Shown here: piece by piece, positions 10,679-32,071 of the stretch | Layout of the letters: every line of letters starts with the position of its first letter | Numbering within the stretch: the stretch's first letter is position 1 | NCBI GenBank assembly: GCA_965207455.1 | Contig: CBDBMJ010000001.1 | Location: 480,001 to 544,000, forward strand | Direction of reading: 5' to 3' | Origin: Bdellovibrionota bacterium | GTDB taxonomy: Bacteria; Bdellovibrionota; UBA1018; CAIPTA01; JAALKR01 | Length of the DNA: 64,000 nucleotides | Program-made: the position numbers and the translations under genes | The notes under the pieces: model-generated | What the model was told of the DNA's origin: nothing | What the model saw: the letters and a program-made list of their open reading frames with translations, nothing else | Database searches by the model: none

Positions 10679-10703
10679 AGCTTTATAGGGCAGATAGTAT
10701 GGA

Positions 10704-10731
10704 TTTTGTATTACTGATAACGTAACTCAAC
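10704..10731 (+). repeat. 28-bp direct repeat, copy 2
   Basis: TTTTGTATTACTGATAACGTAACTCAAC. Confidence 0.85.
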
Positions 10732-10816
10732 TTTGATATGGTCAGGGTCTTCAAAGAAAACAACATAGTTGCTTGGTCCACCGGCATGTGTGATTAATTT
10801 GATCTTGTCAACTTTC

Positions 10817-13372: not shown

Positions 13373-13375
13373 CGT

Positions 13376-14023
13376 TTATACCACCAAATAAAATAAGGGA
13401 AAAAGGAATATCCAGATTAAGTCCACTAGGTGCCAATATAGTCCCACAAATTCTACAGCAGTAAAGTTTTCAGAGTTGAAATCGCCTCGTCTGAGTCGCC
13501 ACATTAACCATAGTAGGCAAATCATTCCTCCTATAACGTGGATGCCATGGAGTCCTGTCATCATAAAATATAGGGAGAAAAACAGGGAGGCGTTTTCCAC
13601 ATGTTCCATGGCAGGGAAGTTAAAATACTTGCCTGGTAGAAGTCCTTCATGGATTTTATGGCTGTACTCAAAATATTTAATGACCATAAAGACACCAGCA
13701 CAAAGAAAGGTGAGTATTAAATTTATCATGGCTTTGCCGAGTTGGTTGCGTTGAACATAAGCAATAGCAAGGGCCATTGTTAGTGAGCTGACCAGCAAAA
13801 CTACGGTATTTATGGATCCCATAACTTTATCTAAGTGGTGATGGGCTTCCTTGAATGTTTCTGGGTAGAGGTAATTAAAGAGAATAAAAGCGACGAAGAG
13901 TCCTCCAAAGAGCATCACCTCTTGGACTAGGAAGAGCCACATGCCAAATTTGCTGGACTCAAACTCATGCTCCTTACTTTTAAACCAAGGAGCGAAATCT
14001 TGTGTTCTTTCTTTACTACTCAT
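13376..14023 (-). CDS. ctaE: Cytochrome c oxidase subunit III
   Basis: GMWLFLVQEVMLFGGLF, TGLHGIHV and YWHLVDLIWIFLF motifs. Confidence 0.95.
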   Translation of the reverse strand: MSSKERTQDFAPWFKSKEHEFESSKFGMWLFLVQEVMLFGGLFVAFILFNYLYPETFKEAHHHLDKVMGSINTVVLLVSSLTMALAIAYVQRNQLGKAMINLILTFLCAGVFMVIKYFEYSHKIHEGLLPGKYFNFPAMEHVENASLFFSLYFMMTGLHGIHVIGGMICLLWLMWRLRRGDFNSENFTAVEFVGLYWHLVDLIWIFLFPLFYLVV

Positions 14024-14026
14024 AGT

Positions 14027-15616: not shown

Positions 15617-15637
15617 CTTTTTCCTTTCTAAAAATAG

Positions 15638-16633
15638 CTACTTTAACGTTTTTATATAAGCAATGAGTTCATTCACTTCTTCATCTGTAAGTGTCCCACG
15701 AAACGTGGGCATACTGGCAGGGTATCCTTTTACTACTTCTTTCATGGGGTCCATTAAAGACCTGCGAATATAATTTTCATCTACGGTTACTTTCTTTCCA
15801 TTGGATAATTCTGTGATGCGATTAAAAGCGCCCTTAAAGGTGGGACCCACAAGGCGACTGCCGTTTATGGAGTGGCATACATTACAAGTTTTTGTTTTAT
15901 ATAGGATTGCACCTCGTTGGGCTATGGTTAGGACGTTGGGGGGCTTTGTTTTTGCTGCTGTTGTTGGGGTTTTTGAATTTTCTGATGTTTTTGGAGCATA
16001 TAGGTTTTGCTCCCATCGTCGGAAATTTTCCGGTTCTAGCACATGCACTTTGCCTAACATCATAGAGTGGGAAGTGCCACAATATTCTGCGCAATAGATG
16101 ATATATTCCCCTATCCTAGTTGGGCGAAACCGAAGAGTTGTGAATAGACCGGGCACCACATCTTGTTTAATACGGAAGGCAGGAACAAAAAAACTATGCA
16201 ATACATCTTTAGATGTCATGATGAGTTTAATATCCTTTCCTTTCGGCACATAGAGTGTGTTGGCAAGGATTTTACCATTCGCATATTGCATTTCCCATGA
16301 CCATTGACGGGCCAAAATGTTTATTTCATACTCGTTCATTTTGGGAGTAATATTTTTTATATAATCTCGGAGGCCCCAGAAGAAAGTAATAGCAGCAATC
16401 AAGCCGATAACAAACATGCTTCCCCACTCTAACCAATGATTGTTTGGAATATAGGCAACTGTATCGGACTCTGATCGCCTGCGGTATTTCACCACAAAGA
16501 AGAGGCCCGATCCGAGGACAGCAAGGAATAGAACTAGGCTTACAGCTAATAAAAAGACGAAGAAATCCTGATAGTTTTGAGCACTATCGGAAGCGATGGG
16601 TAGGGTAGAAAAAAACGAAGACAGAATGGTCAA
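15638..16633 (-). CDS. ctaC: Cytochrome c oxidase subunit II with C-terminal cytochrome c (caa3 type)
   Basis: DVLHSF, CuA motif CAEYCGTSHSMM, heme motif CNVCH. Confidence 0.95.
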   Translation of the reverse strand: MTILSSFFSTLPIASDSAQNYQDFFVFLLAVSLVLFLAVLGSGLFFVVKYRRRSESDTVAYIPNNHWLEWGSMFVIGLIAAITFFWGLRDYIKNITPKMNEYEINILARQWSWEMQYANGKILANTLYVPKGKDIKLIMTSKDVLHSFFVPAFRIKQDVVPGLFTTLRFRPTRIGEYIIYCAEYCGTSHSMMLGKVHVLEPENFRRWEQNLYAPKTSENSKTPTTAAKTKPPNVLTIAQRGAILYKTKTCNVCHSINGSRLVGPTFKGAFNRITELSNGKKVTVDENYIRRSLMDPMKEVVKGYPASMPTFRGTLTDEEVNELIAYIKTLK

Positions 16634-17445
16634 GGCTTGCCTCTCTTTAAAAAATACCTGCGACGAATGAATAATGTTATATAAGTAAGCAATATTAGAA
16701 CAACGGTTACGCCTCCCCCAGCCTTCATCAAGCGACTAGCCAAGAGAACGTAACGATTTTCCTTTGGAGAATAATTATAACAAAAAAGAAGGATTCTTTC
16801 AGTGATTGTCCCCACTTTTCCCTTCGACGCTTCGAGTAAGGCTAATTTTAAATTTTGTCCACCATAATTGCTTCCATAGAGTACCCGGCTTAGCTTTCCT
16901 TTGGGGGAAAGAATAAAGATGCCTGCTCCGTGGGCGAAATCATTTTGTTCGGGGTTGAATCGATAGCCAAAGCCCAATTCTGAGGCGGTTTTTTTCGCTC
17001 CTTTTCCTGTGAGAAAGTGCCAATGTTTCGTGCTTTCCTTTTCTTCCCAGGATTCAAAGAATTTTTTTTTGCTACTAGCGGCCAATTGGAAGTCCTCCCG
17101 GGGGTCGATACTGATGGCAAGGACTTGGTACTTTTCCCCCAGCTTCCAGGAGAGTTGCTCTACGGATTCACGCAGCGCATTTAGTAAAATACCACACAGC
17201 ATTGGACACCCATAATAAGTCATTACTATAACGACGGGTCGGGTGCCGTCAAAATATTTTTTTAGTGGAACGGTTTTGCCTTGTTCATCTTGGAATGTGG
17301 TGGAAAGGCTAAGGGAGATTCCTAAGGAAGGGCGGATGCCTATATTTTCCAGTTCCTTGGGGATGGGTTCGGCAGATTGTACCAATTGAACGGGAAGAAT
17401 AATAAAAACGAGAGGAATGAGAAGAATTTTTTGACGTATTGTCAT
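16630..17445 (-). CDS. SCO family copper chaperone
   Basis: CPMLC motif and FAHGA His; start at 17445 supported by AAGGAG RBS. Confidence 0.9.
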   Translation of the reverse strand: MTIRQKILLIPLVFIILPVQLVQSAEPIPKELENIGIRPSLGISLSLSTTFQDEQGKTVPLKKYFDGTRPVVIVMTYYGCPMLCGILLNALRESVEQLSWKLGEKYQVLAISIDPREDFQLAASSKKKFFESWEEKESTKHWHFLTGKGAKKTASELGFGYRFNPEQNDFAHGAGIFILSPKGKLSRVLYGSNYGGQNLKLALLEASKGKVGTITERILLFCYNYSPKENRYVLLASRLMKAGGGVTVVLILLTYITLFIRRRYFLKRGKP

Positions 17446-17548
17446 AGCTTTGCTCCTTGACTTTTGTAACAAGTATACACAGGAAAAGCAATAAACAGAA
17501 AGATAAAAGGAGGGTGTGAATATGGAAAAAATCGCTGTATAAGAAGGC

Positions 17549-18304
17549 ATGGTAAAAGTCCGAGATGATGGGATTCTTTATAGATATAAAGAAAAAGATA
17601 AGGAAAAGGAAGTTCTTCTGGATTGGAAGAATGTAAAGGGACTCCACTGTTCTATTTGGACGGGTCTCATTTCCATTCGAGGAAAGCACACCATTCCTCT
17701 GCGACTACCTGAGAATGAGCTGGTGCCCCTTGTTATAGAGTTCTACACGCGATGGTCCAGAAAGTTTCCCAGCCAAGCCAAAAAGAATGCCTTCGACTAT
17801 TCAGAGCCACCGAAAAGTGCTGCGATTCTTATGATATTTATTAGTTTATTCCTGTGTTGTCTACTTTCTACTTTGCTATTTGTGGAGAGTTATACACAAA
17901 ATTTTTGCTCTCAAGCTTTAAAGAGAACTCCTGTGCGGATAGCGCCTCAGGTATTAAAAGCAAAAAAGAAAAAGAAGGGGAATTTCGCTCTCACCCTACA
18001 ATTCACTACCCTCAGTGGTCAAGTACTGAAGGGAAAGCGCTATACGGTCAAGACCTATGCGCCGGGAGAAGACCCCACTGAGTTTTCCATTATCTATGCC
18101 AGTGAGGAACCCAATTGTTGGGTTTTAAGTCAAAGTCCGGGAAAGACAGATATAAACTGGGCGAAACGTCGTTATATGGTGTGGTTTAATACCTTAGTGG
18201 GGATTGTTTTCCTTTTAACAGGTATTGCGGGGATTTTTATTGCCATACGCCGACTCACAGAAAAACGTCCTGGCCGGGATTTAATTGCCACAAATTACCC
18301 GTAG
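17549..18304 (+). CDS. Hypothetical membrane protein (2 TM)
   Basis: Two hydrophobic segments flanking a soluble beta domain; start uncertain. Confidence 0.7.
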   Translation: MVKVRDDGILYRYKEKDKEKEVLLDWKNVKGLHCSIWTGLISIRGKHTIPLRLPENELVPLVIEFYTRWSRKFPSQAKKNAFDYSEPPKSAAILMIFISLFLCCLLSTLLFVESYTQNFCSQALKRTPVRIAPQVLKAKKKKKGNFALTLQFTTLSGQVLKGKRYTVKTYAPGEDPTEFSIIYASEEPNCWVLSQSPGKTDINWAKRRYMVWFNTLVGIVFLLTGIAGIFIAIRRLTEKRPGRDLIATNYP

Positions 18305-18305
18305 C

Positions 18306-19133
18306 TTAGGGGTTAACAAATGTGGTGGTTTTAATTGGCAGGAACCTGTCTCCTATAACAAAGTGCTTTCGTACTTTCTGGACTGCGGTTTCTTGAAAGA
18401 AATAACGAATCACACATTTTTTAGGTGGGTCTTGACCTTGTGGCCAGTCTATTTGTATATTACCCGAAGTTAATTCGCTTGAATTAAATGCTTGGTCTGT
18501 TCGGTACATTTCCTTCCCGTCACATTCCAATAGTATCGTTACTCTTGGAATGGCATTTTGCTGGTAGGTTTGGCCATCCCGAGAGTTTAGTAGAAAAATA
18601 TTGGCTTGAAAAACATCACTAAAATTCTTTACCAAACTTTCTGACTGGAATCCATTGTCGTAGCAAATATCAATAAAGAAACTGGAATCATAGTGCTCCG
18701 ATCCTATATCAAATAATACTTTCGTAAGTCTTGTTTTAAGAGAAACCCTTTGTAGGTCATCATCAAGTCTGCTTCCAAGATTATAGTTTGGTTTATCAGA
18801 GTGCAGATCTGTGGTGTTATGAACAGCTAAATAAGGAACTTGATTTAAAGTAATTTCACCATAGGTGCTACTATACAGGGTTTTAGCTTCAGCAGTGCCG
18901 TTAGAATCGCTGGATGAGTATCTCGAGGTGTATTGAATACCATTTTTCCCATCAGCCTTAGAAATCCCCGCATTACAAGCATAGAGGTCTTGTCCTGAAC
19001 TACGAACATCAAAGGTAAATTCTAATCTGGATTCCACCATTGATCTTTCTTCTTGAGGAGTTATTTCACACCAAGCTGTAGTGGTATAGAATATATTAAA
19101 TAATAGTATTTTTATTATTTTATTTTTGAACAT
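18306..19133 (-). CDS. Secreted 4-Cys paralogue (family member 6)
   Basis: Signal peptide; LYACNAG, YDSSFFIDICY, LECDG, CVIRYFFQE. Confidence 0.85.
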   Translation of the reverse strand: MFKNKIIKILLFNIFYTTTAWCEITPQEERSMVESRLEFTFDVRSSGQDLYACNAGISKADGKNGIQYTSRYSSSDSNGTAEAKTLYSSTYGEITLNQVPYLAVHNTTDLHSDKPNYNLGSRLDDDLQRVSLKTRLTKVLFDIGSEHYDSSFFIDICYDNGFQSESLVKNFSDVFQANIFLLNSRDGQTYQQNAIPRVTILLECDGKEMYRTDQAFNSSELTSGNIQIDWPQGQDPPKKCVIRYFFQETAVQKVRKHFVIGDRFLPIKTTTFVNP

Positions 19134-19897
19134 TATTCATATCTCCTTATTACACTTAATTTAAGTACTGTTTTTATTTCGTTTGTTAGAGTTCGATTAT
19201 GACCACGGGGACCAGCGCTTTTTTCTTGAAAAATATAGCGGAAGCGGCAAATTCTTTCTTGACTGGAACCAATGAGTATTTTTTTTTGGCTTGCCAAATC
19301 TATTATCTCAGCATTCGCAACTATCCAGTCTTCGCTGTTTGAGACTGGTATTTGCGTCCAGCTATTACTGTCCTTTATTTTACAGAATAACTGGTATTTC
19401 ACCTCCAAACCAGAAATGATATTATATGCTTGTTGACCGCTGGTGCGGTAGTTATTGAATAGAAAACTTAATTTTGAATCTATATAAAAGTATTCATTTT
19501 TTACACCTTGAGCAGCTACAGATCGATTGTCTATACAAAAATCAATAAAATATTTTGCTCCGTAGTTATCTGAGAATAAAGCTATATTTAAGCCAGTGCC
19601 ATCTGACCCAATTTTTTTTGAAGTATCGTTTTCTGTTGTGATAGCTTCAGTAGTGTTTTCTGCACTTGGTGTTATACTTTTGTATTCTGATATTGATTCA
19701 CCCTCAAATTTGTAAAGAATGGCATCTCTTGAGGGTATACCGCGCATTATGCCAGCATTACAAATACTTAATTCTACTGTATTAAAATGAAGAAGCATCT
19801 TGAGTTGATGCTTAATAGGAAAGGCATTGATGCTTGGATAGAATAGCGCAGTTATTAATAGTAGTGAGCATAGTTTTATTTTTAAATTTTTCATCAT
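19133..19897 (-). CDS. Secreted 4-Cys paralogue (member 5)
   Basis: ICNAG, YGAKYFIDFC, LFCK, CRFRYIFQE. Confidence 0.85.
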   Translation of the reverse strand: MMKNLKIKLCSLLLITALFYPSINAFPIKHQLKMLLHFNTVELSICNAGIMRGIPSRDAILYKFEGESISEYKSITPSAENTTEAITTENDTSKKIGSDGTGLNIALFSDNYGAKYFIDFCIDNRSVAAQGVKNEYFYIDSKLSFLFNNYRTSGQQAYNIISGLEVKYQLFCKIKDSNSWTQIPVSNSEDWIVANAEIIDLASQKKILIGSSQERICRFRYIFQEKSAGPRGHNRTLTNEIKTVLKLSVIRRYE

Positions 19898-20734
19898 TTA
19901 ACTGCCTTCAATTATTTTTACTGCCTCTGTTCTAGTGTTAATTTTCACTTTGTCCGTTAACCCATTTTTTCTAGGCAGTCGTATTCCTCTAGAAGCCTCT
20001 CTGAATTCGTACCGGACTCTGCATGAGGTAACTGTAGCAGATTGAAGCTTTACGGAGAAGTTCTCAAATAAGATAGTGGTTCCAGTATTAAGACGTGTGT
20101 ATTCTCCCGATGATATTGTTTTGAAAGTATTTCTCCACACATTTCCACCATTTCTATCAGTTGATCGTTCTGTGCAAACTATTAAAGCTCGTGCTTCAAG
20201 AGCAGATTTCACCCTATATTGTGAATCATCATATACATTGTCAAAATCAATTGTAGCTGAGAGTTCGGTCCTTGGTATTCCAGTGTTAGTGGCAAAATTA
20301 CTTATGTTGGCGTAGCATATATCCACAAAATAGCTAGCACCATAATTCTTAGATTGTAAAATAAAAACTAGCTTTGACAATTTGCGCGTATTAAGGGCTC
20401 TATCTACATCCCAGTTTAGGTTGAGTTTTCTTGTAATGTCGTTTGAAGCAATCAATTCACCAGATATTGGAGCAGCTAGTTCTTTCTTATAACTAAGAAT
20501 TCCGATGTGGTCATCAGGAAGGTATTGATCAGTAGACACTGAAAAGAGCATTTTATCTAATTCGCCGGCATTTTCATGCCGCAGACCAGCATCGCAAGCA
20601 TGCAGAAAAACGCCTGTTCCGGAAGTAATAATGAAAGACAATTCTTTATCAACAGCCAAGGAGATCTTGGAGAATAGGAAAAAAGCGAGTGTTGGTAATA
20701 AAAAGATATGTTTTTTTATTGATTTTTTTCTCAC
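19898..20734 (-). CDS. Secreted 4-Cys paralogue (member 4)
   Basis: ACDAG, YGASYFVDICY, IVCT, CRVRYEFRE; GTG start with AAGGAGG RBS. Confidence 0.85.
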   Translation of the reverse strand: MRKKSIKKHIFLLPTLAFFLFSKISLAVDKELSFIITSGTGVFLHACDAGLRHENAGELDKMLFSVSTDQYLPDDHIGILSYKKELAAPISGELIASNDITRKLNLNWDVDRALNTRKLSKLVFILQSKNYGASYFVDICYANISNFATNTGIPRTELSATIDFDNVYDDSQYRVKSALEARALIVCTERSTDRNGGNVWRNTFKTISSGEYTRLNTGTTILFENFSVKLQSATVTSCRVRYEFREASRGIRLPRKNGLTDKVKINTRTEAVKIIEGS

Positions 20735-20768
20735 TTTTTTCCTCCTTCTTCTTTATAAGGTTATTGTT

Positions 20769-21461
20769 TTATTCTGCAGTAACAATACCGTGTACTCTTA
20801 CTGTCATCCTAACTAATTCGCCCTCTCGCACACTTGTAGAATTTTCTCTGAATTCATACCGAACTCTACAACCTGTGGATTGTAGTCCTACCACAGTTGG
20901 AGCACTTGTGTAGGCAATCAAATCACTGCTTCCCACATTCGTCCAGTCTAGATTCAGATAAGTAACAGTATCTGATGATTCACCATCTGAGCAGACAGTT
21001 GCAACTCGTGTTTGCAGGCTTGATCTAGTTCTATAGTCATTATTATATATTGTAAAAGTAGCATTAGCTTCTAGTTTATATGTTCTTTCTGCGCTATATT
21101 CTCCTGCCACATCATCCACATAACAGAGATCCACATAGTAGACTGCTCCGTAATTAGTAGAATCCATCAAATATACAAGTTTCTCAAGCAGACCTCCTTC
21201 TCCTCCTGGAGTTACGGAACTGTTAGCAGATGCCACAAGTGTTCCAGATGATGGTGCATTTTGAGTAACCTCGGCTGTTTGACCACTGAATTTATAAATC
21301 ATAGAGTCTGCTTCTGATTGATTCTCATGAGTTAAACCAGCATCACATACCCTCAGTCGGTCTCCTTTACCGGACAGCACTGTGAAATCAAATTCTTCTA
21401 CCGCAGCAAAAGCCTGAGTAGAAAAAAGAGCCATAATTAGACACGTTGTTATTTTTTTCAT
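20769..21461 (-). CDS. Secreted 4-Cys paralogue (member 3; candidate major subunit)
   Basis: VCDAG, YGAVYYVDLCY, TVCS, CRVRYEFRE; canonical signal peptide from ATG 21461 (in-frame ATGs also at 21497 and 21533). Confidence 0.85.
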   Translation of the reverse strand: MKKITTCLIMALFSTQAFAAVEEFDFTVLSGKGDRLRVCDAGLTHENQSEADSMIYKFSGQTAEVTQNAPSSGTLVASANSSVTPGGEGGLLEKLVYLMDSTNYGAVYYVDLCYVDDVAGEYSAERTYKLEANATFTIYNNDYRTRSSLQTRVATVCSDGESSDTVTYLNLDWTNVGSSDLIAYTSAPTVVGLQSTGCRVRYEFRENSTSVREGELVRMTVRVHGIVTAE

Positions 21462-21562
21462 TGTTGTTTCCTTTCTGTTTATTATTGTTGTTTTCATTGT
21501 TGTTTCCTTTCTGTTTATTATTGTTGTTTTCATTGTTGTTTCCTTTCTGTTTATTGTTGTTG
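21455..21562 (-). repeat. 3 x 36-bp tandem repeat, each containing RBS + ATG
   Basis: Minus-strand unit CAACAATAATAAACAGAAAGGAAACAACAATGAAAA; third copy has one mismatch. Confidence 0.95.
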
Positions 21563-21591
21563 TTTATGTACATAATCAAAATCATTCTAGT

Positions 21592-22482
21592 TCAGAGTTT
21601 AAACTCAGTATTGTATTTATTTTCATTGATGGATTTTATTTCTGTAAATGTGGATATTTCAATATTTATATTTCTGTCATTCCTTTTCTTATCAATATTA
21701 TTCTCCCTGAATTTATATCTGGTTACACATTTATTTCTAACGATATCGTTGTCTTTACTAATTTTAAATTCCTTGTTTTCAAAAGAAGTTTTTCCGGTGG
21801 CATGGATCCATTCTGATTCCAACAATTTTTCTCCATTGCACCAAAGTTCATACTTGAAGGATAGATATGAATCTTTTATATAATCTGCATTATTGGGAAG
21901 AGTTACTTCAGATCTGAAATACATTGTATTATTTTCTTTCTCCAAACCATCAGTGTTTGGGTCATTAGGGGTAGCTACAATTGTTCCTCCAGCACCATTA
22001 TAATGACAGATATCCACAAAATATTCTGATCCAGAGAAATCTGATTGAAGGTAGTATTTTAGGTTTTTCAAGACAATTAAACGATCAATTCCGTTTGCAT
22101 TTTTTACTCTATGTTTTGTTGTGTCACTGGAATATGTTCTATCATCTCCAGTCTCATTATTTGCAACAACCCATTTTTCATCATTTTTAGAACGCTTACT
22201 AGATGGAGGTCTAGTGAAATAGGAAGAGTTATCATTTAGGTCATTTCTCATAAATTTTCTAGGTTCATATTCAGCAAATTGATAATGTATTTCATCTCCT
22301 GATAAATCTCCAAGACTGTTAGGTGGCTCAACTGTTTCAGTAGAACTTATTCGCCTTAGACCAGCATTGCATGGGTAAAGATTATTTCCAGTGGTAATAA
22401 CTCGAAATGAGAAATTATTCGAAGCTCCCATTGCGCTAAATAAGATAAGAAATGAAGTTAAGATAGAAAGTATACTCTTCAT
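21592..22482 (-). CDS. Secreted 4-Cys paralogue (member 2)
   Basis: LYPCNAG, FSGSEYFVDICH, LWCNG, CVTRYKFRE. Confidence 0.85.
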   Translation of the reverse strand: MKSILSILTSFLILFSAMGASNNFSFRVITTGNNLYPCNAGLRRISSTETVEPPNSLGDLSGDEIHYQFAEYEPRKFMRNDLNDNSSYFTRPPSSKRSKNDEKWVVANNETGDDRTYSSDTTKHRVKNANGIDRLIVLKNLKYYLQSDFSGSEYFVDICHYNGAGGTIVATPNDPNTDGLEKENNTMYFRSEVTLPNNADYIKDSYLSFKYELWCNGEKLLESEWIHATGKTSFENKEFKISKDNDIVRNKCVTRYKFRENNIDKKRNDRNINIEISTFTEIKSINENKYNTEFKL

Positions 22483-23078
22483 GGTAATTGCCTTATTTGG
22501 GTTGTTATATTTAGTTCAATATTAAATACTTCTCCATTACAATAAGCGTACTTGGCTAAATTTGTTCTTCTAAATTTTGTTGTGCTGAAAAATACTATTT
22601 TTTGTGTTTTCTTCTCATTTTCATTCATTTTGCATAGATTTAAATACTTTTCTTCTCTGGCTGGGTCTGAATATCTTTCAAATTGATTAAAAATATTTTT
22701 AGGATGAAGTGTTACAAAATCTCCTGTTTTTAAGAGTTCCCTTAGTCCTTCGGTTGCTGAATTATCTTGGTATGATACTCTAAAAAAAGAATCCATTTGA
22801 TTAAAAATCAAGTGCATTGTAAGGCTGTTGCTTGCACAATTACGGCAGTATTTTTCATTTATATCGCAGGATAGCTGGTCTCCGCAAAGTTCAGCACAAA
22901 ATGTGCTTTCTGAGTTGCAGGAAATGGAGACATATTTTTGATACTTCATGCCATTATCTGTGAAATTTACTTCAATTTTTAAATCACTAAATTCTTCCAT
23001 TGCTTGTGCTGTATGTTGGAAGCATACGGATAGGAGTAGAAAATAAATAGGAATTATTTTTTTTGTATTATTTTTCAT
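22479..23078 (-). CDS. Secreted Cys-rich hypothetical protein
   Basis: Signal peptide; CNSESTFCAELCGDQLSCDINEKYCRNC cluster. Confidence 0.8.
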   Translation of the reverse strand: MKNNTKKIIPIYFLLLSVCFQHTAQAMEEFSDLKIEVNFTDNGMKYQKYVSISCNSESTFCAELCGDQLSCDINEKYCRNCASNSLTMHLIFNQMDSFFRVSYQDNSATEGLRELLKTGDFVTLHPKNIFNQFERYSDPAREEKYLNLCKMNENEKKTQKIVFFSTTKFRRTNLAKYAYCNGEVFNIELNITTQIRQLP

Positions 23079-23090
23079 ATTTCCAACCGA

Positions 23091-25892
23091 TCACCTAAAG
23101 TATTCTTTAGGTAGCCTACTTTTCCTTATTGTGCAATTTCCATCTGATTTTTGTTTTCCAAGACTAGACGCTCCTTGATAATCTAATGTTGCATAAATTT
23201 TTATAGAGTTTTTTGATTCGTTAAGTTTAACTTTTGCATAACCAAACTTGGCGAATTCTTTCATATCAATGTTTGATATAAAATTACTATTTTTTAAATA
23301 TTTCTGTGTTTGGTAATAAATGTTTTTCATGCATTTTGGATATGGATAGGGCCAGCATTTTCTGCCATTTTTTATTTGATTCAAGCAAATTTTAGGTATG
23401 GACTCATCATCGCCAAACTCTGAGCTAACAAGCTGTAGATTATCTAAATCTATTGTGCGAGAGTCTGGAATATTGTATGGGTCGTTTTCTTTTCTATAAG
23501 AGTAAGACAAAAGGCTTTCAATGAAAAATAGAGGATTGAAGTAATCTTGAATAATAGGGAGGGAACTGAGACTTATATAACAAGCGCCACAGCCGGCGAA
23601 GTTAGAGCTTTTCTTACTTAATTTACCATCATTGCCAATAATATGATCTATATTTTGACTGCTACCACAATATTGTGTAGTGATTCCAATGGACACGGGA
23701 GGCATAATAGTAGCATATTTTAATTTTTCATCGATGGATATGGTGCACGGTATATTGAATAAAGGTCCAAGATTTGCTATTAATCCAACCTTGATCGTTT
23801 GTTTTTCTTTATTGGTTTTAAATTTAATTTTTCCATCTTCAATCAATCTCTCTAAGCTAATCACTTCCCCCGGGTCTAAACGGACATTCAAAATGGCTAG
23901 CCAAGGATTTACAGCGAATAAAGCACCTCTAAAGATTGAAGCAATAATATTAAATATTCTTTCATTTGTTGCTGCCCAAGGATCGTATAATTCGCAAGCA
24001 ACTCTCTCTGAATAAGGATTGAACATGGCTGGTGAACGAATTTCACCCGACAAAGCAAGAAGTGGCTCCATATTATTCATGCTTGAGTATGTATTCATTA
24101 TAGAATCTTGAAGCAGAAGTGTGCAATCAAGTAGAGTACCGCATAATATATTTTTTGAATTTTTATTTTTACTGTATCCAGGTAAAACAGCAAATGGCTC
24201 TCTTAATGAGTCTCTACCATAGTTTCTTTTGCTAATTATATTTTCATTTTCTATCATTCCAACTTTCTTTAATTCATCTAAAAACCATTGACTGTGACCG
24301 CGTTTAGTGCCTTTATTTCTGTTGAATCTGAGGTCTCTTTTCTCACAGAAACGTACAACCTCATCTCTTATTTCTTGATAGTAACTTAAACTCTCTCGTA
24401 TAGTTGAAGCTGGAATAAAACCAGATAAATTATTTAATTGACCTATCTTCTCCATGGAATCAATCTTTGATTTCATTCCATTGATAAAATTATTATTAGT
24501 GAAAGTATATTCGGAGCACATAAAGTAAAGTCTATTGTCTTTTGAACTATCTTTGACCCAAGCATCATTATTGAAATTTATTAATAGTTTTTCTTTAGTG
24601 AGTTGACTTTTTATGAAAGATAGAACTTTTAGGGCAGAAGCCAGTTTTCTTTTAGTGTATATACCGGCCTTTGATACTTTAGAAAATAGATCGCTTGTCC
24701 ATTTCGATGCACTTGGTGATTGGTCAATATTATCCTCATAGTATATTCTGAGTGAATTATTGTTTACCGCAGGAAGAGGATTTTTCAATAGACTTTTTTC
24801 CAATTCCTCCGGCAGTGATGTGAAGTAATCATCATAAAGTTTCTGAATTTTTTGATTGGGATCTGCTAGCCTTCGCATGGAGTTCAAATATATGTGATTG
24901 CTGCTGCATGAAGGAACATTAATTGAAGCACACCCATTTGGCACAAATATAATCGATTCTTCTAAATTTATGCTTCTAAGTAAATAACTGTATTTGTTTT
25001 TTTTGGACTCATCTGAGTTTCTCCATGCCCAAGATAAATAAATCTTTAAACTATTCCAGTAATCGAATCCATTTTTTTCCCATGAATCCGTATTTGTATT
25101 TAAAATATCTAATTGATAAGTTCCATTTTTTTCTGAAGATGGATTATCACAGGAGCTTATATATTTACCCTTTTCCTTTAATGTTTTATTTAACTTAAAG
25201 ATCGAATCATCATCTGGGCGTGGTTTCACTAGATGGCTTTGTAGAGGAGAAAATTTCTTTATATAATGACAAGAAAGGTTTCCCAATACGCTAGGATTAT
25301 TTTTATTATTGTTACCCCATATTTTTTCAATATAATTGTCCATATTGGAACAATTCCACTCATTCCCTTGGCATGATTGCACCACTTTCCAATATTCGGC
25401 ATTATTTTTTAAGGACTTTTCATTGGAAGATGAAGGCAGGAGAGGTAATGAGCCAGAACTTAGTCTTTCATGGATATTGCGGATCAATAACAATAAGGTA
25501 TTTTTATACTCAATAATAGCTTCATTTATTCTGGAATTTGTATCTGATCCCGTTTCTTTACTTAACTGGTAGGCTGCCTTTCCCACATTTGTGGAATCGA
25601 GAAGGATAAAAATAGTATTTGTTGGGTATTGGGATGCATCTGCACAAGCTGCTCTGTTTTTAAATTGTAGTGGATTTAATGAAATAGGCTTTTGGAAGTC
25701 TACTGATTTTTTCCTACCTACTATCATACTTTGGCTAAAATCAATACTACTATCATTGCCTTCTACTCTTGGGGGAAAGTTATTTGCAAATGCATTCAGA
25801 TCGAAAAAAGAAATTACTACAATAATAGGAACAGAAATATACAGAGGTAATTTCCTATTTTTAACTAGTATTTTATTTTCAAATTGAAACAT
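23091..25892 (-). CDS. Large secreted Cys-rich hypothetical protein (933 aa)
   Basis: Long ORF, signal-like N-terminus, many paired Cys. Confidence 0.85.
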   Translation of the reverse strand: MFQFENKILVKNRKLPLYISVPIIVVISFFDLNAFANNFPPRVEGNDSSIDFSQSMIVGRKKSVDFQKPISLNPLQFKNRAACADASQYPTNTIFILLDSTNVGKAAYQLSKETGSDTNSRINEAIIEYKNTLLLLIRNIHERLSSGSLPLLPSSSNEKSLKNNAEYWKVVQSCQGNEWNCSNMDNYIEKIWGNNNKNNPSVLGNLSCHYIKKFSPLQSHLVKPRPDDDSIFKLNKTLKEKGKYISSCDNPSSEKNGTYQLDILNTNTDSWEKNGFDYWNSLKIYLSWAWRNSDESKKNKYSYLLRSINLEESIIFVPNGCASINVPSCSSNHIYLNSMRRLADPNQKIQKLYDDYFTSLPEELEKSLLKNPLPAVNNNSLRIYYEDNIDQSPSASKWTSDLFSKVSKAGIYTKRKLASALKVLSFIKSQLTKEKLLINFNNDAWVKDSSKDNRLYFMCSEYTFTNNNFINGMKSKIDSMEKIGQLNNLSGFIPASTIRESLSYYQEIRDEVVRFCEKRDLRFNRNKGTKRGHSQWFLDELKKVGMIENENIISKRNYGRDSLREPFAVLPGYSKNKNSKNILCGTLLDCTLLLQDSIMNTYSSMNNMEPLLALSGEIRSPAMFNPYSERVACELYDPWAATNERIFNIIASIFRGALFAVNPWLAILNVRLDPGEVISLERLIEDGKIKFKTNKEKQTIKVGLIANLGPLFNIPCTISIDEKLKYATIMPPVSIGITTQYCGSSQNIDHIIGNDGKLSKKSSNFAGCGACYISLSSLPIIQDYFNPLFFIESLLSYSYRKENDPYNIPDSRTIDLDNLQLVSSEFGDDESIPKICLNQIKNGRKCWPYPYPKCMKNIYYQTQKYLKNSNFISNIDMKEFAKFGYAKVKLNESKNSIKIYATLDYQGASSLGKQKSDGNCTIRKSRLPKEYFR

Positions 25893-25923
25893 ACTTTCGC
25901 TTTCCCATAAATGAAGAGATAAC

Positions 25924-26520
25924 CTACTGAATCATTCCAGAGCAGCTAGCTCCACTGTCACCTGATATAGTAATGAAAAGTGACATTATCTGTTGTTCTG
26001 AATGCGTTAACGATTCCTGTACTTCGCGATTTTCACCGTGCATGTTGGCGAGAGTTCCTGTAATTGATTTATATACTTGTCGTGTTACCCTAACTTTTAC
26101 AGTTGCGCGTCCTTGGGTGATCTTATGCTGGGCCTGTAGACTATAGTTGAGCTTTCTATCGCTGTTGGTCCCATTACTTGGGTTTGATCCGAAAAAATAA
26201 GAGTTATTACCGCCGTTATTGTAATTGCCCTTTCCTACTGATGCGCCGAAGGTGGTTTCAGTTTTGTCTCTCAGTTCACAGTCATAGGTAATTAATGTAC
26301 AACCACCCCCGTCACAGTCACGGCTTTCATCTTCTTCCAGTTCCTTTAATCTATCAAGCACCCCTTTACTAAGGGTTTTCTCATTATTTTCAGCTTCACC
26401 ATATTGCGTGGTTTGATCTGTTGCTACGCCAAGGTTGCTGATACTTATCCCTAAGAGCAAAACTCCTAGAAAAAATATGGGTTTCATTATTTTTGTTTTT
26501 TTGTTTTTTGTCATTTTCAT
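25924..26520 (-). CDS. Secreted hypothetical protein
   Basis: Signal peptide; AGGAG RBS; CDGGGC motif then an amphipathic beta-hairpin with a Gly/Asn loop. Confidence 0.8.
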   Translation of the reverse strand: MKMTKNKKTKIMKPIFFLGVLLLGISISNLGVATDQTTQYGEAENNEKTLSKGVLDRLKELEEDESRDCDGGGCTLITYDCELRDKTETTFGASVGKGNYNNGGNNSYFFGSNPSNGTNSDRKLNYSLQAQHKITQGRATVKVRVTRQVYKSITGTLANMHGENREVQESLTHSEQQIMSLFITISGDSGASCSGMIQ

Positions 26521-26535
26521 CTCCTTTTTTTGTTT

Positions 26536-28275
26536 TTATTTAGTATTTTTCTCACAAATTTGTTTTTCATTGTTAGAAAAGAATAAATAATCGTAGAATT
26601 CTGTTCGATTTTTTCTAGGCAAATCACATACGGATTGAATGCTTCTTTCATAATCTTCCAATAGCCTTGACTCTCTTCTCACTGTTAAAAAATCCAGTTC
26701 CCAAAGTATATCTTGTTCAGTAAATTCCCTTTTCTTCAAAGCCTTTAATTCAACTAATAATCTTATGTAGGGATGATATCTTTGGACTGAGGTGCAGGAT
26801 TTATTATTTTTATAACAAACTTTTTTGTAATTTGGCCAAATATAATTTCTATTTGCCCCTAAGCTTGATCCATTTTTAAAGGATGAAGGGATAGTATAAG
26901 AAGCGCCTACTTTAAATCTATTTATTTTTTGTATTTCTTCTATTTTATTTGTTTCTGGAACTGTTGGAATCTCCTGCAGTCCATCCTCCATCAGACTGTT
27001 AAATGATCTGTTCTTGTCGATGAGATTGACTGGTATTATGATGTTATTTTGTTTGAATCTCCAATAGTCTGTTTTTGGATTCCTGAATGATATTGCTAGA
27101 CCGTATTTTTGTTCTTTTTCAATCTTTAAATCTTTAAATATTTTAGATATTTTGATTATGCCTTGCCATTGAGGTGATAAAATTCTTCCCATTCGCCAAG
27201 TCCATGGACTCTTGCTGGGAATTTTTTCTCCTAGTTCGCTAATTTTGTAAAATATAATTTCTGCCGCTAGGGGCTTTAAGAATGAGCAATTACTTGTGCA
27301 TATGCCATTGCGGCACACCTTTGGACATACATTATTCACAGCAATGGATGCTTTTACTTTTGTTCCTTTTTCTCCAAGATCTTGTATTTCTAAAACGCCC
27401 ATTTCAACTTCAGGCGTATAATACTCTTTAATATAAATGGGGCGATTTCTTATCTCACGAGCTAAAATTTCAGGTTTTTGTGATGATTCTAAGTGCAATC
27501 GACCTGGAATACTTCCCATTAGTATAGTTTCTTGTCCTATTTCCCCGGGGGTTGCTACATTTTTTGGATTATTTATTATTCGAACAGAGGTATAGAAAAT
27601 AAACTCAATTGGAGCAAAATTATTTTTACTAAGGAATTTCTCATTTAAACAAGACTTTTTAAATTTAGATTTTATCTGAAATTTAGCACCTTTTCCAATA
27701 TGGAAAAAACAGTCTGCTGTGGTGTTCATGATAACCTCTCGGTCCGATATAATTTCCAATTCACATTGGGGAAGATTAAAATCACTGGGTGGCTTATCTA
27801 ATATTAAGGGTAGATTGGATGTGATTTTTCTTTCTAAACAATGGGTCAAAAATTTGTGTTGTTGCACAATATTTTCTTTTCTGGCATTGAAACTTTGTAC
27901 TGGAAATCTAGCGTTCAGCAATTTTTCTTCATCCTCAGTCTCACGCATGTCTTTCGATGGATCTATATATGTTTTTACTGCATCTAAAACTATGGGGGAG
28001 GAGGCAACAGTAAATGTGATATAAAGAGAATTATTATTTGCAGCACGCTTGTCGCAGTCATCTATAGTTATTCCATTATAGTCTAAACCTGTATAGCTTT
28101 TGGCAATAGTTCTAAAGGTATCTTTTGTAACCAGTGAACCACCATAGATCACTGTTCCTCCTTTTAGCCTATTTAAAGAACATAACCCACCAGTATTTAC
28201 ACGATTTCCATCAATTCCCAGAGAGTGTGCGGAAGAAAAAAATAGTATTAGGGATAAATAAATTTTTAATTTCAT
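26536..28275 (-). CDS. Secreted Cys-containing hypothetical protein (579 aa)
   Basis: Signal peptide; CPKVCRNGICTSNC cluster; ATGA overlap with upstream gene. Confidence 0.85.
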   Translation of the reverse strand: MKLKIYLSLILFFSSAHSLGIDGNRVNTGGLCSLNRLKGGTVIYGGSLVTKDTFRTIAKSYTGLDYNGITIDDCDKRAANNNSLYITFTVASSPIVLDAVKTYIDPSKDMRETEDEEKLLNARFPVQSFNARKENIVQQHKFLTHCLERKITSNLPLILDKPPSDFNLPQCELEIISDREVIMNTTADCFFHIGKGAKFQIKSKFKKSCLNEKFLSKNNFAPIEFIFYTSVRIINNPKNVATPGEIGQETILMGSIPGRLHLESSQKPEILAREIRNRPIYIKEYYTPEVEMGVLEIQDLGEKGTKVKASIAVNNVCPKVCRNGICTSNCSFLKPLAAEIIFYKISELGEKIPSKSPWTWRMGRILSPQWQGIIKISKIFKDLKIEKEQKYGLAISFRNPKTDYWRFKQNNIIIPVNLIDKNRSFNSLMEDGLQEIPTVPETNKIEEIQKINRFKVGASYTIPSSFKNGSSLGANRNYIWPNYKKVCYKNNKSCTSVQRYHPYIRLLVELKALKKREFTEQDILWELDFLTVRRESRLLEDYERSIQSVCDLPRKNRTEFYDYLFFSNNEKQICEKNTK

Positions 28276-29147
28276 TTTAATTCTCCCCCAGTTAATGTGT
28301 TAATTTTCATTGTAAGTTTGGTTGAGGGGCTTTCTCGAGCTTTCAGATTGCTCTCGGAAAACGTATGTCTCATTACACACTTTTTAGGCAAATAACTAGA
28401 AATAGAATAATCACTTAATATCGTTGAATTTGTGTTAGAAATTATTGAATCCTCTTTTGAATAAACCTCTTGTCCATCACATTTTATTATCAAAGAATGT
28501 GTAAGCTTAGCTGAAATGGCATAGTTAGCCACTGTCCTTGATAGATCATCCATTGTTATGGTTAAATATAATGGCTTATTTAAATAATCATTATTTTTAA
28601 GCCTATCGCTTGCGAATGGATTTGTCCTTCCGCTGAAATAGCAAATATCTATAAAGTACTGGAAACCATAGCTCTCAGAATTGAACTCGAATGTGATATC
28701 CTTTATAGCGACTACTGCATCCTGGCTGGTATTTTTATGGACGCTAAGATTACCAGAATAAAAATATCTTAGGGAGTGAAGCACAAAGACCTTCCATTGT
28801 TGAGGATCGCTTGAAATTTTTTGCATAGAGGATACAGTTTCTTGAGATCCATTCGGATTCAAGGATATTTCCTCTGTAGTATAAATAATATGATTCCGTT
28901 TATTCTCCCCGTTAACCGTGCTGGTGGTAACCACATCATCACTAGTATACAATGAGTTTCCCTCTCCATAATTGGGAGCAGGAGAAATTCCAACGTTGCA
29001 GGGATACAGCAATGTGTATAAGGGAAGACTTTGGGCAAAAGCACTTAGATTAGCAGTGAAGTAGAATAGGAAGAAACTACCAATTAGCCTTGTAAATATT
29101 TTTTTTATTTTTACATGTCTCACTTTCAAAATCCTCAATAATGACAA
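28272..29147 (-). CDS. Secreted 4-Cys paralogue (member 1; start uncertain)
   Basis: LYPCNVG, YGFQYFIDICY, IKCDG, CVMRHTFSE. Confidence 0.82.
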   Translation of the reverse strand: MSLLRILKVRHVKIKKIFTRLIGSFFLFYFTANLSAFAQSLPLYTLLYPCNVGISPAPNYGEGNSLYTSDDVVTTSTVNGENKRNHIIYTTEEISLNPNGSQETVSSMQKISSDPQQWKVFVLHSLRYFYSGNLSVHKNTSQDAVVAIKDITFEFNSESYGFQYFIDICYFSGRTNPFASDRLKNNDYLNKPLYLTITMDDLSRTVANYAISAKLTHSLIIKCDGQEVYSKEDSIISNTNSTILSDYSISSYLPKKCVMRHTFSESNLKARESPSTKLTMKINTLTGGELK

Positions 29148-29212
29148 GAGTCAATGCCTCGCACCCTCATCCCCAACAGTGATGACTCACAATATAACTT
29201 AAGTCTGTGTGC

Positions 29213-29241
29213 AATATATTGAAGCAGATGTGATGTGTCAA
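29213..29241 (-). promoter_or_regulatory. Sigma70-like promoter of the 10-gene operon
   Basis: TTGACA-N17-TATATT on the minus strand. Confidence 0.65.
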
Positions 29242-29531
29242 TAGTTTATTTTTAATTTTTGTTAAAATGCATTGCGTTATAAAATTAAGGTTAGAAACTT
29301 ACTAAATGAACTAAATCAATTATTATTTTTTTATAGATGGACAATGCAAAATTCTCTTTAAATACAGATCTTACTACTGTACTTTGCAGTGAATGGTTTA
29401 TGTTTAAAACAATTAGTCTTGATGCGTTATTTTTGTTGGTAATAGTATTGTTTTTTACTAAAGAAAAAATAATGGAATATGTTTGAGTGTATTGATACGT
29501 TAACGTAGAGTTTTTCTTAAAAATAAAAAAG

Positions 29532-30230
29532 ATGGCAGATAAAAAAGAAACGAGAATTTTTACAGATGGGGCTTGTTCGGGAAACCCGGGTCCTGGCGGT
29601 TGGGGAGCTATTGTACTCTTTTCAGATGGTCGGGTTTTAGAAATGGGAGGAAGCCACCCAGAAACAACGAATAATCGCATGGAGCTCACTGCAGCCCTCC
29701 TGGCCTTAGAAAAATTGAGAGAATTTCCAACAGAACTCCCGTTGATCACTCTCTATACGGACTCCAAGTACCTTATCCAAGGCATGGAACAATGGACATA
29801 CCTATGGCAACGAAACCAATGGCAAACCAGTCAAGGCAAACCAGTGCTCAATATGGGTTTATGGAAAAAACTCATCCAAGCAGCCAGCAAACTACGCATA
29901 CAATGGAAGCATATCCCGGCTCACTCCAACTACCCTGGAAATGAACGTTGCGACGAGATTGCTGTAGCCTTTAGCCGAAACACCCATCCAAAATTGTATA
30001 CTGGATCCCAGGTCAACTATGGTGTGGATCTCACAGTGCTGCCCAGAGCCTCTAGTAAAGGATCCTCCAAGCCCTATTATATGAGCTATGTCGACGGGGT
30101 TCTTTTTCGGGACAGCACCTGGAATGCCTGTCAAGAGCGGGTGAAGGGGGTATCGAGAGCTAGGTTTAAAAAATGTCGGGACGAAGAGGAGGAGAGGCGT
30201 ACCCTTGAAAAGTGGGGGATTTCCCCATAA
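29532..30230 (+). CDS. rnhA: Ribonuclease HI with a C-terminal viroplasmin-like (hybrid-binding) domain
   Basis: FTDGACSGNPGPGGWG, TNNRMEL, YTDSKY, GNERCD; tail TWNACQERVKGVSRARFKK. Confidence 0.93.
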   Translation: MADKKETRIFTDGACSGNPGPGGWGAIVLFSDGRVLEMGGSHPETTNNRMELTAALLALEKLREFPTELPLITLYTDSKYLIQGMEQWTYLWQRNQWQTSQGKPVLNMGLWKKLIQAASKLRIQWKHIPAHSNYPGNERCDEIAVAFSRNTHPKLYTGSQVNYGVDLTVLPRASSKGSSKPYYMSYVDGVLFRDSTWNACQERVKGVSRARFKKCRDEEEERRTLEKWGISP

Positions 30231-30348
30231 TTTCTAGCTCCATGGAGCGAGTGGATCAATAGTGCTAGAAATTCCAGCTAGGTTCGTATACAGTTTTTTC
30301 ATGTTAACAAAGAAGGAAAATTCTTATGAAATCCAACAAGGAGCTATT

Positions 30349-31677
30349 ATGAAAGATTATCGTGTTTGTCCCAAGGCAATGGAAAACCCCGACTTTTTTA
30401 AGGAGTTAGCCCGTTGGGGGCGCATGGAAATTACCATTGCAGAGTCAGAAATGCCGGGTTTAATGGCGTTACGAAAAGAGTTTGGTCCTCGGCAAATTCT
30501 TAAAGGAGCGCACATTACTGGGTGTCTTCATATGACCATACAAACTGCGGTTCTTATAGAAACGTTAATCGCCTTAGGAGCCAAAATTCGTTGGTCCTCG
30601 TGTAATATTTTTTCCACTCAGGATCATGCAGCCGTAGCAATGGCAGCAGCAGGGGTGCCTATTTTTGCGTGGAAAGGAGAGACGGAAGAGGAGTTCAATT
30701 GGTGTATTGAACAAACCATCACGGGCTGGGGTGATCAGGGTTATAATTTAATTTTAGACGACGGTGGGGATTTAACCAATATGATGTGTGAAGAGCGTTT
30801 CGCAAAAGAAATGGATCGGGTTATTGGTCTATCTGAGGAAACCACCACAGGTGTGCATAACTTGGAGTGCTTAGCTCAGAATGGAAAGCTTCCCGTGCCA
30901 GCGATTAATGTGAATGACTCTGTTACAAAATCTAAATTTGATAATCTTTATGGTTGTCGTGAGTCCCTTGCCGACGGAATTAAGCGAGCCACAGATGTGA
31001 TGCTTGCGGGAAAGACGGTAGTTGTTGCGGGTTATGGTGACGTGGGTAAGGGCTGTGCAAAGTCCTTACAGTCCTATGGTTCCAGGGTATTGATTACTGA
31101 GATTGACCCTATTTGTGCTCTCCAAGCATCTATGGAGGGTTTCGAGGTAACGACTATGGAAAAAGCAGCTCCTCAGGCAGATATTTTTGTGACCGCTACT
31201 GGTTGTTGCGACATTCTCACGTCCACCCATTTTGATCAGATGAAAGGTGGAGCTATTGTTTGCAATATTGGTCACTTTGATATTGAAATTGATATGGATT
31301 GGCTCAATGGACACTCCAAACTAGAGGAAATAAAGCCCCAAGTGGACAAGCATACTCTAAAAAATGGTCGAATTATTATTGTATTGGCAAAAGGTCGATT
31401 GGTGAATTTAGGCTGTGCCACAGGTCATCCTTCTTTTGTAATGAGTAACTCTTTTACTAATCAGGTGTTGGCACAAATAGAGTTATATACCAATAAAGGG
31501 TCCAGTAAATATGGGGAGAGAAAAGTATATAGATTACCTAAAGAATTAGATGAGAAGGTGGCATTTCTTCACCTAGAAAAAGTGGGTGCTCAGCTTTCGA
31601 AGCTTTCTTCTAAGCAAGCGAAGTATTTGGGTCTTCCAGAACAGGGACCCTTTAAGCCTGATTATTATCGTTATTAG
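30349..31677 (+). CDS. ahcY: S-adenosyl-L-homocysteine hydrolase
   Basis: [50 protein letters not shown]; start at 30349 after AAGGAG. Confidence 0.97.
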
Positions 31678-32026
31678 TTTTTGTTTCTTCTTTTATCCAA
31701 CGTCCATTGGAGAAAATAAATGTGGAGACTTTGCGGAAAGAAGGATTTTCAATGGTGGAAATATTCTCATCGCTATACCAAGTTGGAGAGCGAGTGTCAG
31801 AAGGGGCGCTGGAAGGGGTGCTAGAATTGGTGCGAGAGCTGGAGCTAGCATGCGAAGTATACTTTCCTACCCGTAGTTTATGAACTCGCCAAACAACTAG
31901 GGCATACAGAAGACCAAAAACAAAAGCAAAACCGCTGACGAAAAATACAGCGATAAAAGGATAGGAGAGGCACAAAAATCCAAAGGTAATAGAGACAATG
32001 GCAGGTGTATAGGAGCTTACTTTCAT
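31652..32026 (-). CDS. Small hypothetical membrane protein
   Basis: Two TM segments plus a Ser-rich tail; ATG 32026 preferred from promoter position. Confidence 0.6.
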
Positions 32027-32032
32027 GGTTTT

Positions 32033-32061
32033 TTTATACAATAGTTATAATGGATTGTCAA
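32033..32061 (-). promoter_or_regulatory. Sigma70-like promoter, possibly for a leaderless transcript
   Basis: TTGACA-N17-TATAAA, with 6 nt before ATG 32026. Confidence 0.55.
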
Positions 32062-32071
32062 TTTATAGCTC

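Follow-up and report, generated by a model that had tools for sequence, protein, structure and literature searches.

The window analysed here is a 64,000-nucleotide stretch of the genome of a Bdellovibrionota bacterium (NCBI GenBank assembly GCA_965207455.1, contig CBDBMJ010000001.1, positions 480,001 to 544,000), and it contains a ten-gene operon whose products fall into five protein families, which we named A to E. Family A comprises six paralogues, while B, C, D, and E are each encoded by a single gene. We found that this five-family cluster is specific to Bdellovibrionota. Judged by sequence and predicted fold, none of the five families appears to belong to a known system; similarities to described systems are confined to layout or fold class, and the kind of system seems to be new. 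We tentatively propose that this Sec-exported, Cys-rich cluster builds an envelope or surface complex, in which the A proteins would act as variable binding subunits.

The ten open reading frames (ORFs) follow one another on the minus strand between 29147 and 18306, all in the same direction and in the order A-B-C-D-E-A-A-A-A-A. Typical family sizes are about 280 residues for A, 550 for B, 190 for C, 900 for D, and 190 for E. Junctions between the genes are tight: two gene pairs overlap by 4 bp and one by 1 bp, one pair abuts directly, and the remaining gaps measure 12, 15, 31, 34, and 58 bp. A promoter-like site, TTGACA-N17-TATATT, sits about 65 bp upstream of the first ORF; it has an 11/12 match and is the top scorer within positions 17500-30000. 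That interval holds 53 promoter-like sites against 47.9 +/- 6.5 in shuffled sequence, which is no excess, so only position and quality favor this particular site. The coordinates and the site bear out a first-pass annotation of the window, which had described ten co-oriented genes with short or overlapping junctions behind one promoter. That annotation had also called the DNA AT-richer than its flanks, and we measured a G+C content per kilobase of 0.32-0.38 at 19000-28999, compared to 0.40-0.46 at 10000-17999 and 0.42-0.45 at 30000-32999. The operon as a whole has a G+C content of 0.343, the genome one of 0.402, and values this low or lower occur in 3.7% of 2358 11-kb segments of the genome. 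Its claim that all ten products begin with signal-peptide-like sequences also held: by our own heuristic for export, which combines Lys/Arg residues with Kyte-Doolittle hydrophobicity, every N terminus has one to six Lys/Arg followed by a hydrophobic stretch, with a best 10-residue mean of 2.1-2.9.

A profile of family A led to three other genomes of the same class among 60 relatives searched, and in all three the five families lie side by side. Family D, our marker for the cluster, occurs in 6 of 127 genomes of the window's class and in 71 of 401 genomes sampled from the phylum (both counts include genome G000), chiefly within two taxonomic families, where it is present in 23/53 and 40/100 genomes. 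We fetched 65 loci via D in a scan of one genome per species and scanned them with our own hidden Markov models (HMMs) of the five families. All five families were present in 53 of these 65 loci, and a synteny check proposed alongside the first-pass annotation thus supports it, the paralogue family having kept its four accessory genes. Among the 12 loci without the full set, ten are limited by their contigs (1.2-12.2 kb) and two, L036 and L081, are long exceptions; L081 has no C at E <= 1e-5. The genes are arranged as CDEABA in 22 loci, ABACDE in 6, CDEAB in 5, ABCDE in 5, and DEaABC in 4, with other orders besides. The A-B and C-D-E adjacencies persist through at least six gene orders, forming two blocks, A-B(-A) and C-D-E, and B nearly always adjoins an A gene in loci other than that of the window. 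These 65 loci carry one to three A genes each, compared to six in the window, so the six copies represent an expansion.

Record titles place 60 of the 65 loci in Bdellovibrio, Pseudobdellovibrionaceae, Bdellovibrionales, Bacteriovoracaceae, Bacteriovorax, Halobacteriovorax, or Oligoflexia. The other five titles name one Sulfitobacter metagenome-assembled genome (MAG), two Proteobacteria, one Pseudomonadota, and one Deltaproteobacteria. The locus titled Sulfitobacter sp. MAG (L045) has a full ABACDE cluster, and in the tree its D all but coincides with the D of an uncultured Halobacteriovorax locus (L040). Mis-binning or a wrong label of this contig is the probable explanation, not an occurrence in Alphaproteobacteria.

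Searches for relatives of the ten products among described families returned nothing usable. None of the products reaches the curated cut-off of any Pfam family, and none has an NCBIfam match at E <= 1, in line with the first-pass annotation, which had recognised no family. Comparison with phage and anti-phage proteins gave no match in PHROGs and, in PADLOC, only two stray matches of E, with E values of 0.0036 and 0.0056. Profiles of B, C, D, and E found nothing below an E value of 0.03 among PDB sequences, and D and B had no usable match in the ESM Atlas. In these family searches, no ATPase, membrane channel, or known enzyme family was recognisable among the cluster products. The closest named relatives of D are "hypothetical" or "secreted" proteins of Bdellovibrio bacteriovorus.

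Conserved Cys residues recur throughout the accessory families. Family B has six invariant Cys and others that are nearly invariant, E has eight invariant Cys, and D has at least 14, alongside the invariant non-Cys residues E311, E461, D804, W279, and W536. C is the most conserved of the five families between strains, and its conserved C-terminal segment has the family consensus FTPADQTMILFYTT, which reads LTHSEQQIMSLFIT in the window copy. Many B homologues have a Cys right after the signal peptide, yet we set aside a lipoprotein assignment for B, since strict and loose lipobox patterns matched 0/57 and 15/57 sequences, respectively. We also modelled D from 20 sequences (predicted local distance difference test [pLDDT] score, 69.3; predicted template modelling [pTM] score, 0.70), and the model is helical to about residue 660 and beta-rich beyond. 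Foldseek gave a best E value of 0.2 for this model, and the structural aligner VIA gave a best Z score of 5.3 over only 62 residues, which leaves D with no convincing relative by fold. A long beta-hairpin in the D model (residues 736-774) was considered as a membrane-inserting element and rejected, as it carries three conserved Cys.

The six A paralogues align over their full length, with 20-26% identity to the first, and share 14 invariant columns; these include the four Cys and the ordered motif blocks by which the first-pass annotation had grouped them. The window's own genome has exactly six matches to the family A profile, all inside the operon. When the six paralogues were used in a word-index homologue search, no proteins beyond the window's own came back, and the wider family emerged from an exhaustive profile search of 1.84 billion cluster representatives. 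This search yielded 255 proteins at E <= 0.001 and 146 at 1e-10, and we conclude that family A is real but small. Among 79 aligned members, the four invariant Cys are present in 79/79, and no Pfam family is common to two members. Spacing is most variable between the first and second Cys (74-152 residues; the other two spacings are 36-72 and 32-75 residues), and this long stretch coincides with low-confidence parts of the model described next.

The AlphaFold2 model of A4, built on the 79-sequence alignment, is an all-beta closed sandwich (pLDDT, 70.9; pTM, 0.70). All four invariant Cys lie inside core strands, the first of them in the first core strand, and because of this placement within a closed sandwich, the model suggests that the disulfides of A are intramolecular. 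The N- and C-terminal strands are both in place, although a monomer model of this kind cannot exclude strand exchange. Comparing the monomer with known structures, a check that had been recommended with the first-pass annotation, gave no PDB match at E <= 0.001 in Foldseek, where the top rows were birnavirus VP2 jelly rolls with template modelling (TM) scores of 0.24-0.27. The BFVD viral library gave one match (7e-4; TM score, 0.23) that speaks to fold class only. The best matches from the structural aligner, at Z 5-7.1 where the aligner's stated background for such models is Z 7-8, were carbohydrate-binding or sensor beta-sandwiches, glycosidase accessory domains, and phage tail-fibre tips. 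The top match was the RetS periplasmic sensor domain (2xbz, Z 7.1), and the sugar binders included the Fbs1 domain (2e33, Z 6.5), CBM27 (1of3, Z 5.9), and CBM61 (2xom, Z 5.3); across these four, 112-127 residues aligned at 6-9% sequence identity. TasA (8aur) matched at Z 6.3 with a root mean square deviation of 3.6 A over 140 residues, a score that ties with unrelated sandwiches, and other matches were Bd1399 (Z 5.5), CsgC (Z 5.5), and an archaeal bundling pilin (Z 5.1). As modelled, then, A is a jelly-roll-type sandwich without a close fold relative. Antibody heavy chains, which appeared in the PDB profile search of A at E values of 0.002-0.03, were treated as a chance match of Cys-bearing sandwiches.

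We compared the cluster with known surface systems that it resembles in one respect or another. As in chaperone-usher and type V pili, several diverged beta-sandwich paralogues stand with accessory genes in one operon. However, an hmmscan of the ten products against Pfam and NCBIfam at E <= 1 found no usher, chaperone, sortase, or other known family, which agrees with the first-pass annotation that no usher or sortase was visible, and neither the ten products nor the homologues at another locus (L020 in genome G213) have an Usher or PapD-like chaperone match. Chaperone-usher subunits have an incomplete Ig-like fold in which a donor strand replaces the missing last strand; the A model is a closed sandwich, but as a monomer model it does not decide between self-contained and strand-exchanged subunits. 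The known subunits of type V (FimA/Mfa) pili are proteolytically matured lipoproteins, whereas A has no FimA-type match, and the strict lipobox pattern occurs in 2/97 A N termini. The endospore appendage (Ena) proteins share the jelly-roll fold class with A, and TasA/camelysin, archaeal bundling pili, and Ena are all built from exported jelly-roll subunits of about 250 residues, as A would be. Yet none of the 79 A members matches DUF3992, the A Cys are in core strands rather than in an N-terminal connector that forms intermolecular disulfides as in Ena, none of the 79 matches Peptidase_M73, the TasA/camelysin family whose jelly rolls polymerise by donor-strand exchange, the Z score with TasA is within background, and the organism is Gram negative.

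Curli, which we compared by logic only, are similar in that all parts are Sec-exported, that no ATPase is involved, and that paralogous subunits and small accessory proteins are encoded in two blocks. Curli consist of CsgA/B subunits with the accessory proteins CsgC, CsgE, CsgF, and CsgG, assembled by type VIII secretion and encoded in csgBAC/csgDEFG blocks. The ten products differ in having no Curlin_rpt, CsgG, CsgE, or CsgF match, A is modelled as a sandwich and not as the beta-solenoid of CsgA/B, no CsgG-like lipoprotein channel is recognisable, and the only fold link is the tie of A with CsgC at Z 5.5. Carbohydrate-binding and sensor sandwiches provide the best structural matches of the A model at the level of fold class, but A has no CBM match in Pfam, and the low identities noted above come with scores that are not above those of unrelated rows. 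The mosaic adhesive trimers of B. bacteriovorus are likewise lineage-specific, multiplied, and diversified exported proteins, with a presumed role in recognising prey surfaces. They differ from the five-family operon of the window in being long trimeric fibres that are each encoded by a single gene.

The five families diverge at markedly different rates. Across five pairs of Bdellovibrio-labelled loci, identity was 72-92% for C, 62-75% for D, and 53-62% for E, while in the same pairs it was 46-76% for the A copy before B, 33-71% for B, and 25-70% for the A copy after B. A single pair illustrates the gradient, with 92, 72, 62, 49, 33, and 25% identity in that order. C and D are thus conserved, whereas divergence is fast in A and B and fastest in the second A copy. 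In a maximum-likelihood tree of 52 A proteins, a short-branched clade holds 23 pre-B copies from Bdellovibrio- and Bacteriovoracaceae-type loci, and the post-B copies are long-branched. All six window copies sit on long branches, and none is placed with support in the conserved clade; among them, A3 and A4 (99/95) and A1 and A6 (99/82) are sister pairs.

The window's lineage probably acquired the cluster by horizontal transfer. We draw this from three observations: no copy of the cluster turned up in the one other genome of the window's family or in the nine of its order, the DNA is AT-rich, and D is placed away from its class in the tree. In this tree of 37 D proteins, which was built with FastTree with Shimodaira-Hasegawa-like support and midpoint rooting, the window's D joins two Bacteriovoracaceae-type loci (0.943) within a clade of 18 members (0.989), and the D proteins of the three same-class genomes are placed apart from it; long branches and the midpoint rooting qualify this placement.

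The reference genome of B. bacteriovorus holds two copies of the cluster, Bd0749-Bd0754 and Bd2928-Bd2930, and we assigned these tags by matching gene coordinates of genome G243 to the NC_005363 table of Karunker et al. 2013 (PMC3627812). Legacy names in that table call Bd0749 a "pilus assembly protein", Bd0751 and Bd0754 each a "putative protease", and Bd0752 a "putative cation-transporting ATPase", and Pfam searches of the homologues at L020 gave these four names no support. We found no discussion of the cluster genes in literature full text (subscription journals and preprint supplements were outside this scope). Two nearby tags proved to be other genes: Bd0739, which is attachment-defective, RomR-associated, and near dgcB, is a different gene from any in the cluster, and Bd2924 is an unrelated dehydrogenase.

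In the reading that we tentatively favor, the cluster products would assemble into a disulfide-stabilised complex located within the envelope or at the cell surface, with C, D, and E as its constant core and A together with B as a replaceable periphery. The A sandwiches would serve to bind ligands outside the cell, for instance prey or surface glycans, and the window's lineage would have widened its binding repertoire by multiplying A to six copies. Several points weigh against this reading. Even the best structural match of A does not exceed the aligner's stated background, so what points to a binding module is fold class and variability only. The fast divergence of A and B could also come from relaxed constraint. 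The D tree is a midpoint-rooted FastTree tree in which the window's branches are long.

The homologues in B. bacteriovorus also weigh against it, at least as far as ordinary predation is concerned. In the RNA-seq table of PMC3627812, all nine genes (Bd0749-Bd0754 and Bd2928-Bd2930) are flagged "Silent", with 0-0.9 reads per kilobase per million (RPKM) in attack phase (dnaA, 4) and 0-37 after 3 h of growth (dnaA, 224). The microarray values of Lambert et al. 2010 (PMC2797640) indicate no change at 30 min in the bdelloplast (0.94-1.32) and are mixed during host-independent growth, with Bd0750 at 0.45-0.49, Bd0752 at 0.32-0.38, Bd0749 at 0.79-0.84, Bd0753 at 1.04-1.37, Bd0751 at 2.3-2.7, and Bd0754 at 2.0-5.3. 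No cluster tag appears in the supplementary lists of a transposon sequencing (Tn-seq) predation screen (PMC6561027), and since these lists give candidate predation genes and not the whole genome, this absence is weak evidence that the cluster is dispensable for predation in the laboratory. Given that the homologues are silent, the microarray is mixed, and the tags are absent from the Tn-seq lists, we consider a role of the cluster in ordinary laboratory predation by B. bacteriovorus unlikely. Together with the patchy distribution, the silence of the homologues fits an accessory or conditional function and disfavors a core role in attack phase. Bd0749, Bd0750, Bd0751, Bd0753, Bd0754, and Bd2929 are also absent from the proteome supplements of PMC12546842, which carries no weight, as other identifiers are possible there. 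Among listed sequencing runs, positions 19200-29100 of the window turned up in no RNA data set and in one DNA data set, probably the source assembly, a result that carries no information on expression.

Three other explanations accommodate parts of the same evidence. The A paralogues could be the major and minor subunits of a fibre or lattice that polymerises outside the cell by strand exchange or disulfides, with B, C, D, and E serving for export and nucleation without ATP, much as in curli, as would suit a cluster whose parts are all Sec-exported and include no ATPase. Several diverged beta-sandwich paralogues in one operon and a two-block layout like that of csgBAC/csgDEFG argue for such a fibre, and TasA and the archaeal bundling pilin are among the fold matches of A, although these tie with many non-fibre sandwiches below the stated background. 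Moreover, the A model is closed, with both terminal strands placed and four Cys in core strands, most loci have only one to three A genes, and family searches detect no outer-membrane channel, usher, or chaperone, and we regard polymerisation of this kind as rather unlikely. The first-pass annotation had proposed a new fibre system, and of that proposal an undescribed, conserved system of exported proteins stands, while assembly into a fibre or lattice is supported neither way. An appendage made constitutively in attack phase is hard to square with the PMC3627812 table, in whose strain the homologues are silent both then and after 3 h of growth.

The cluster could also encode a secreted enzyme set, in which D, perhaps together with B, would attack polymers of the prey or of the cell's own envelope as a new hydrolase or lyase, and A proteins would be substrate-binding helpers. 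D is large and conserved, has invariant acidic and aromatic residues besides Cys, and is modelled as a helical domain followed by a beta domain; the fold class of A is common among carbohydrate-binding modules, and Bdellovibrionota export many hydrolases. Against this, D matches no enzyme in sequence or fold, such helpers are usually fused to the enzyme and are not separate, multiplied genes, and the PMC3627812 table flags the homologues of B. bacteriovorus as silent during predation, so that an enzymatic role strikes us as unlikely. That same silence in attack phase and 3-h growth phase would suit an envelope coat, a disulfide-cross-linked layer made only in a resting stage, in a biofilm, or under stress, as would the conserved Cys in which all five families are rich and the patchy occurrence within taxonomic families (23/53 and 40/100 genomes). 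Nothing points to any particular state, though, and a structural layer is not obviously in need of fast-diverging paralogues, and we judge such a coat quite unlikely. Equally improbable, in our estimation, is a bolder version of the fibre idea, by which the cluster would be a sixth kind of Gram-negative surface assembly, ATP-independent, Sec-fed, and confined to predatory Bdellovibrionota, with a C-D-E core that exports disulfide-locked A subunits and nucleates them into a fibre or lattice, and with interchangeable A proteins that set which prey or surface is held.

Predatory Bdellovibrionota are studied as living antibiotics, and most genes special to them are unnamed. The cluster is kept from Bdellovibrio to Halobacteriovorax, it occurs twice in a laboratory strain, and its homologues are present in a genetically tractable strain. 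A conserved core with a fast-diverging periphery of variable copy number looks like a recognition device, and if the cluster is one, it could matter for prey range or for attachment to surfaces. Should it be a new assembly pathway, it would extend the short list of Gram-negative routes for building outside the cell.

Table 1. Features of the operon in the window and its copies in Bdellovibrio bacteriovorus (window coordinates unless a locus is named)
Feature	Position	Strand	Remark
Promoter-like site TTGACA-N17-TATATT	29213..29241	-
A1, 4-Cys beta-sandwich (predicted) paralogue, 291 residues from TTG at 29147	28272..29147	-	4-bp overlap with B
B, predicted exported protein, 579 residues, 14 Cys	26536..28275	-
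C, predicted exported protein, 198 residues, Gly/Asn-rich center	25924..26520	-
D, predicted exported protein, 933 residues, 20 Cys	23091..25892	-	cluster marker
E, predicted exported protein, 199 residues, N-terminal six-Cys block	22479..23078	-	4-bp overlap with A2
A2, 4-Cys paralogue, 296 residues	21592..22482	-
36-bp tandem repeat, 3.1 copies, 98% matching	21455..21565		across the 5' end of A3
A3, 4-Cys paralogue, 230 residues from the third ATG (21461), with a signal-peptide-like start	20769..21533	-
A4, 4-Cys paralogue, 278 residues	19898..20734	-	the modelled paralogue; tree sister of A3
A5, 4-Cys paralogue, 254 residues	19133..19897	-	most diverged (end branch 2.92)
A6, 4-Cys paralogue, 275 residues	18306..19133	-	last gene; tree sister of A1
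First copy in B. bacteriovorus (L087, genome G243)	6736-14082		Bd0754 = C, Bd0753 = D, Bd0752 = E, Bd0751 = A, Bd0750 = B, Bd0749 = second A, Bd0748 = sixth neighbor
Second copy in B. bacteriovorus			Bd2930 = C, Bd2929 = D, Bd2928 = E

Several loci depart from the common layout or add to it. Genome G213 carries two CDEABA operons, and the proteins of its locus L020 have no Pfam match. In B. bacteriovorus strain kdesi, a third D gene stands alone (L036, 8836-11670), with no A, B, C, or E gene within 9 kb on either side, and the same genome has two complete clusters, L025 and L037. The locus of a GC-rich genome of the window's class (L013 in G036, 10444-13253) has an E that is a 567-residue ORF with two E-like Cys blocks, and a 441-residue ORF lies between its E and A genes. 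A sixth conserved neighbor of about 390 residues follows the last A gene in 19 Bdellovibrio-type loci (e.g., L022, 15763-16989); it has no Pfam match, and tblastn found no match to it in the window's genome.

Just downstream of the operon, on the same strand at 15638-17550, are two ORFs whose identities were judged from translations only: one resembles cytochrome c oxidase subunit II and has a cytochrome c motif (CNVCH) at its C terminus, and the other is SCO1/SenC-like. At the upstream end of the operon, the gene caller gives A1 283 residues, consistent with a GTG start at 29123. The 36-bp repeat unit at the start of A3 encodes MKTTIINRKETT on the minus (coding) strand and contains an AAGGA-like ribosome-binding motif followed by ATG. 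Since each unit has its own ATG, the A3 ORF can start in frame at three sites spaced by 36 bp, of which only the last precedes a signal-peptide-like sequence. The repeat could be a recent duplication or a copy-number switch that affects translation.

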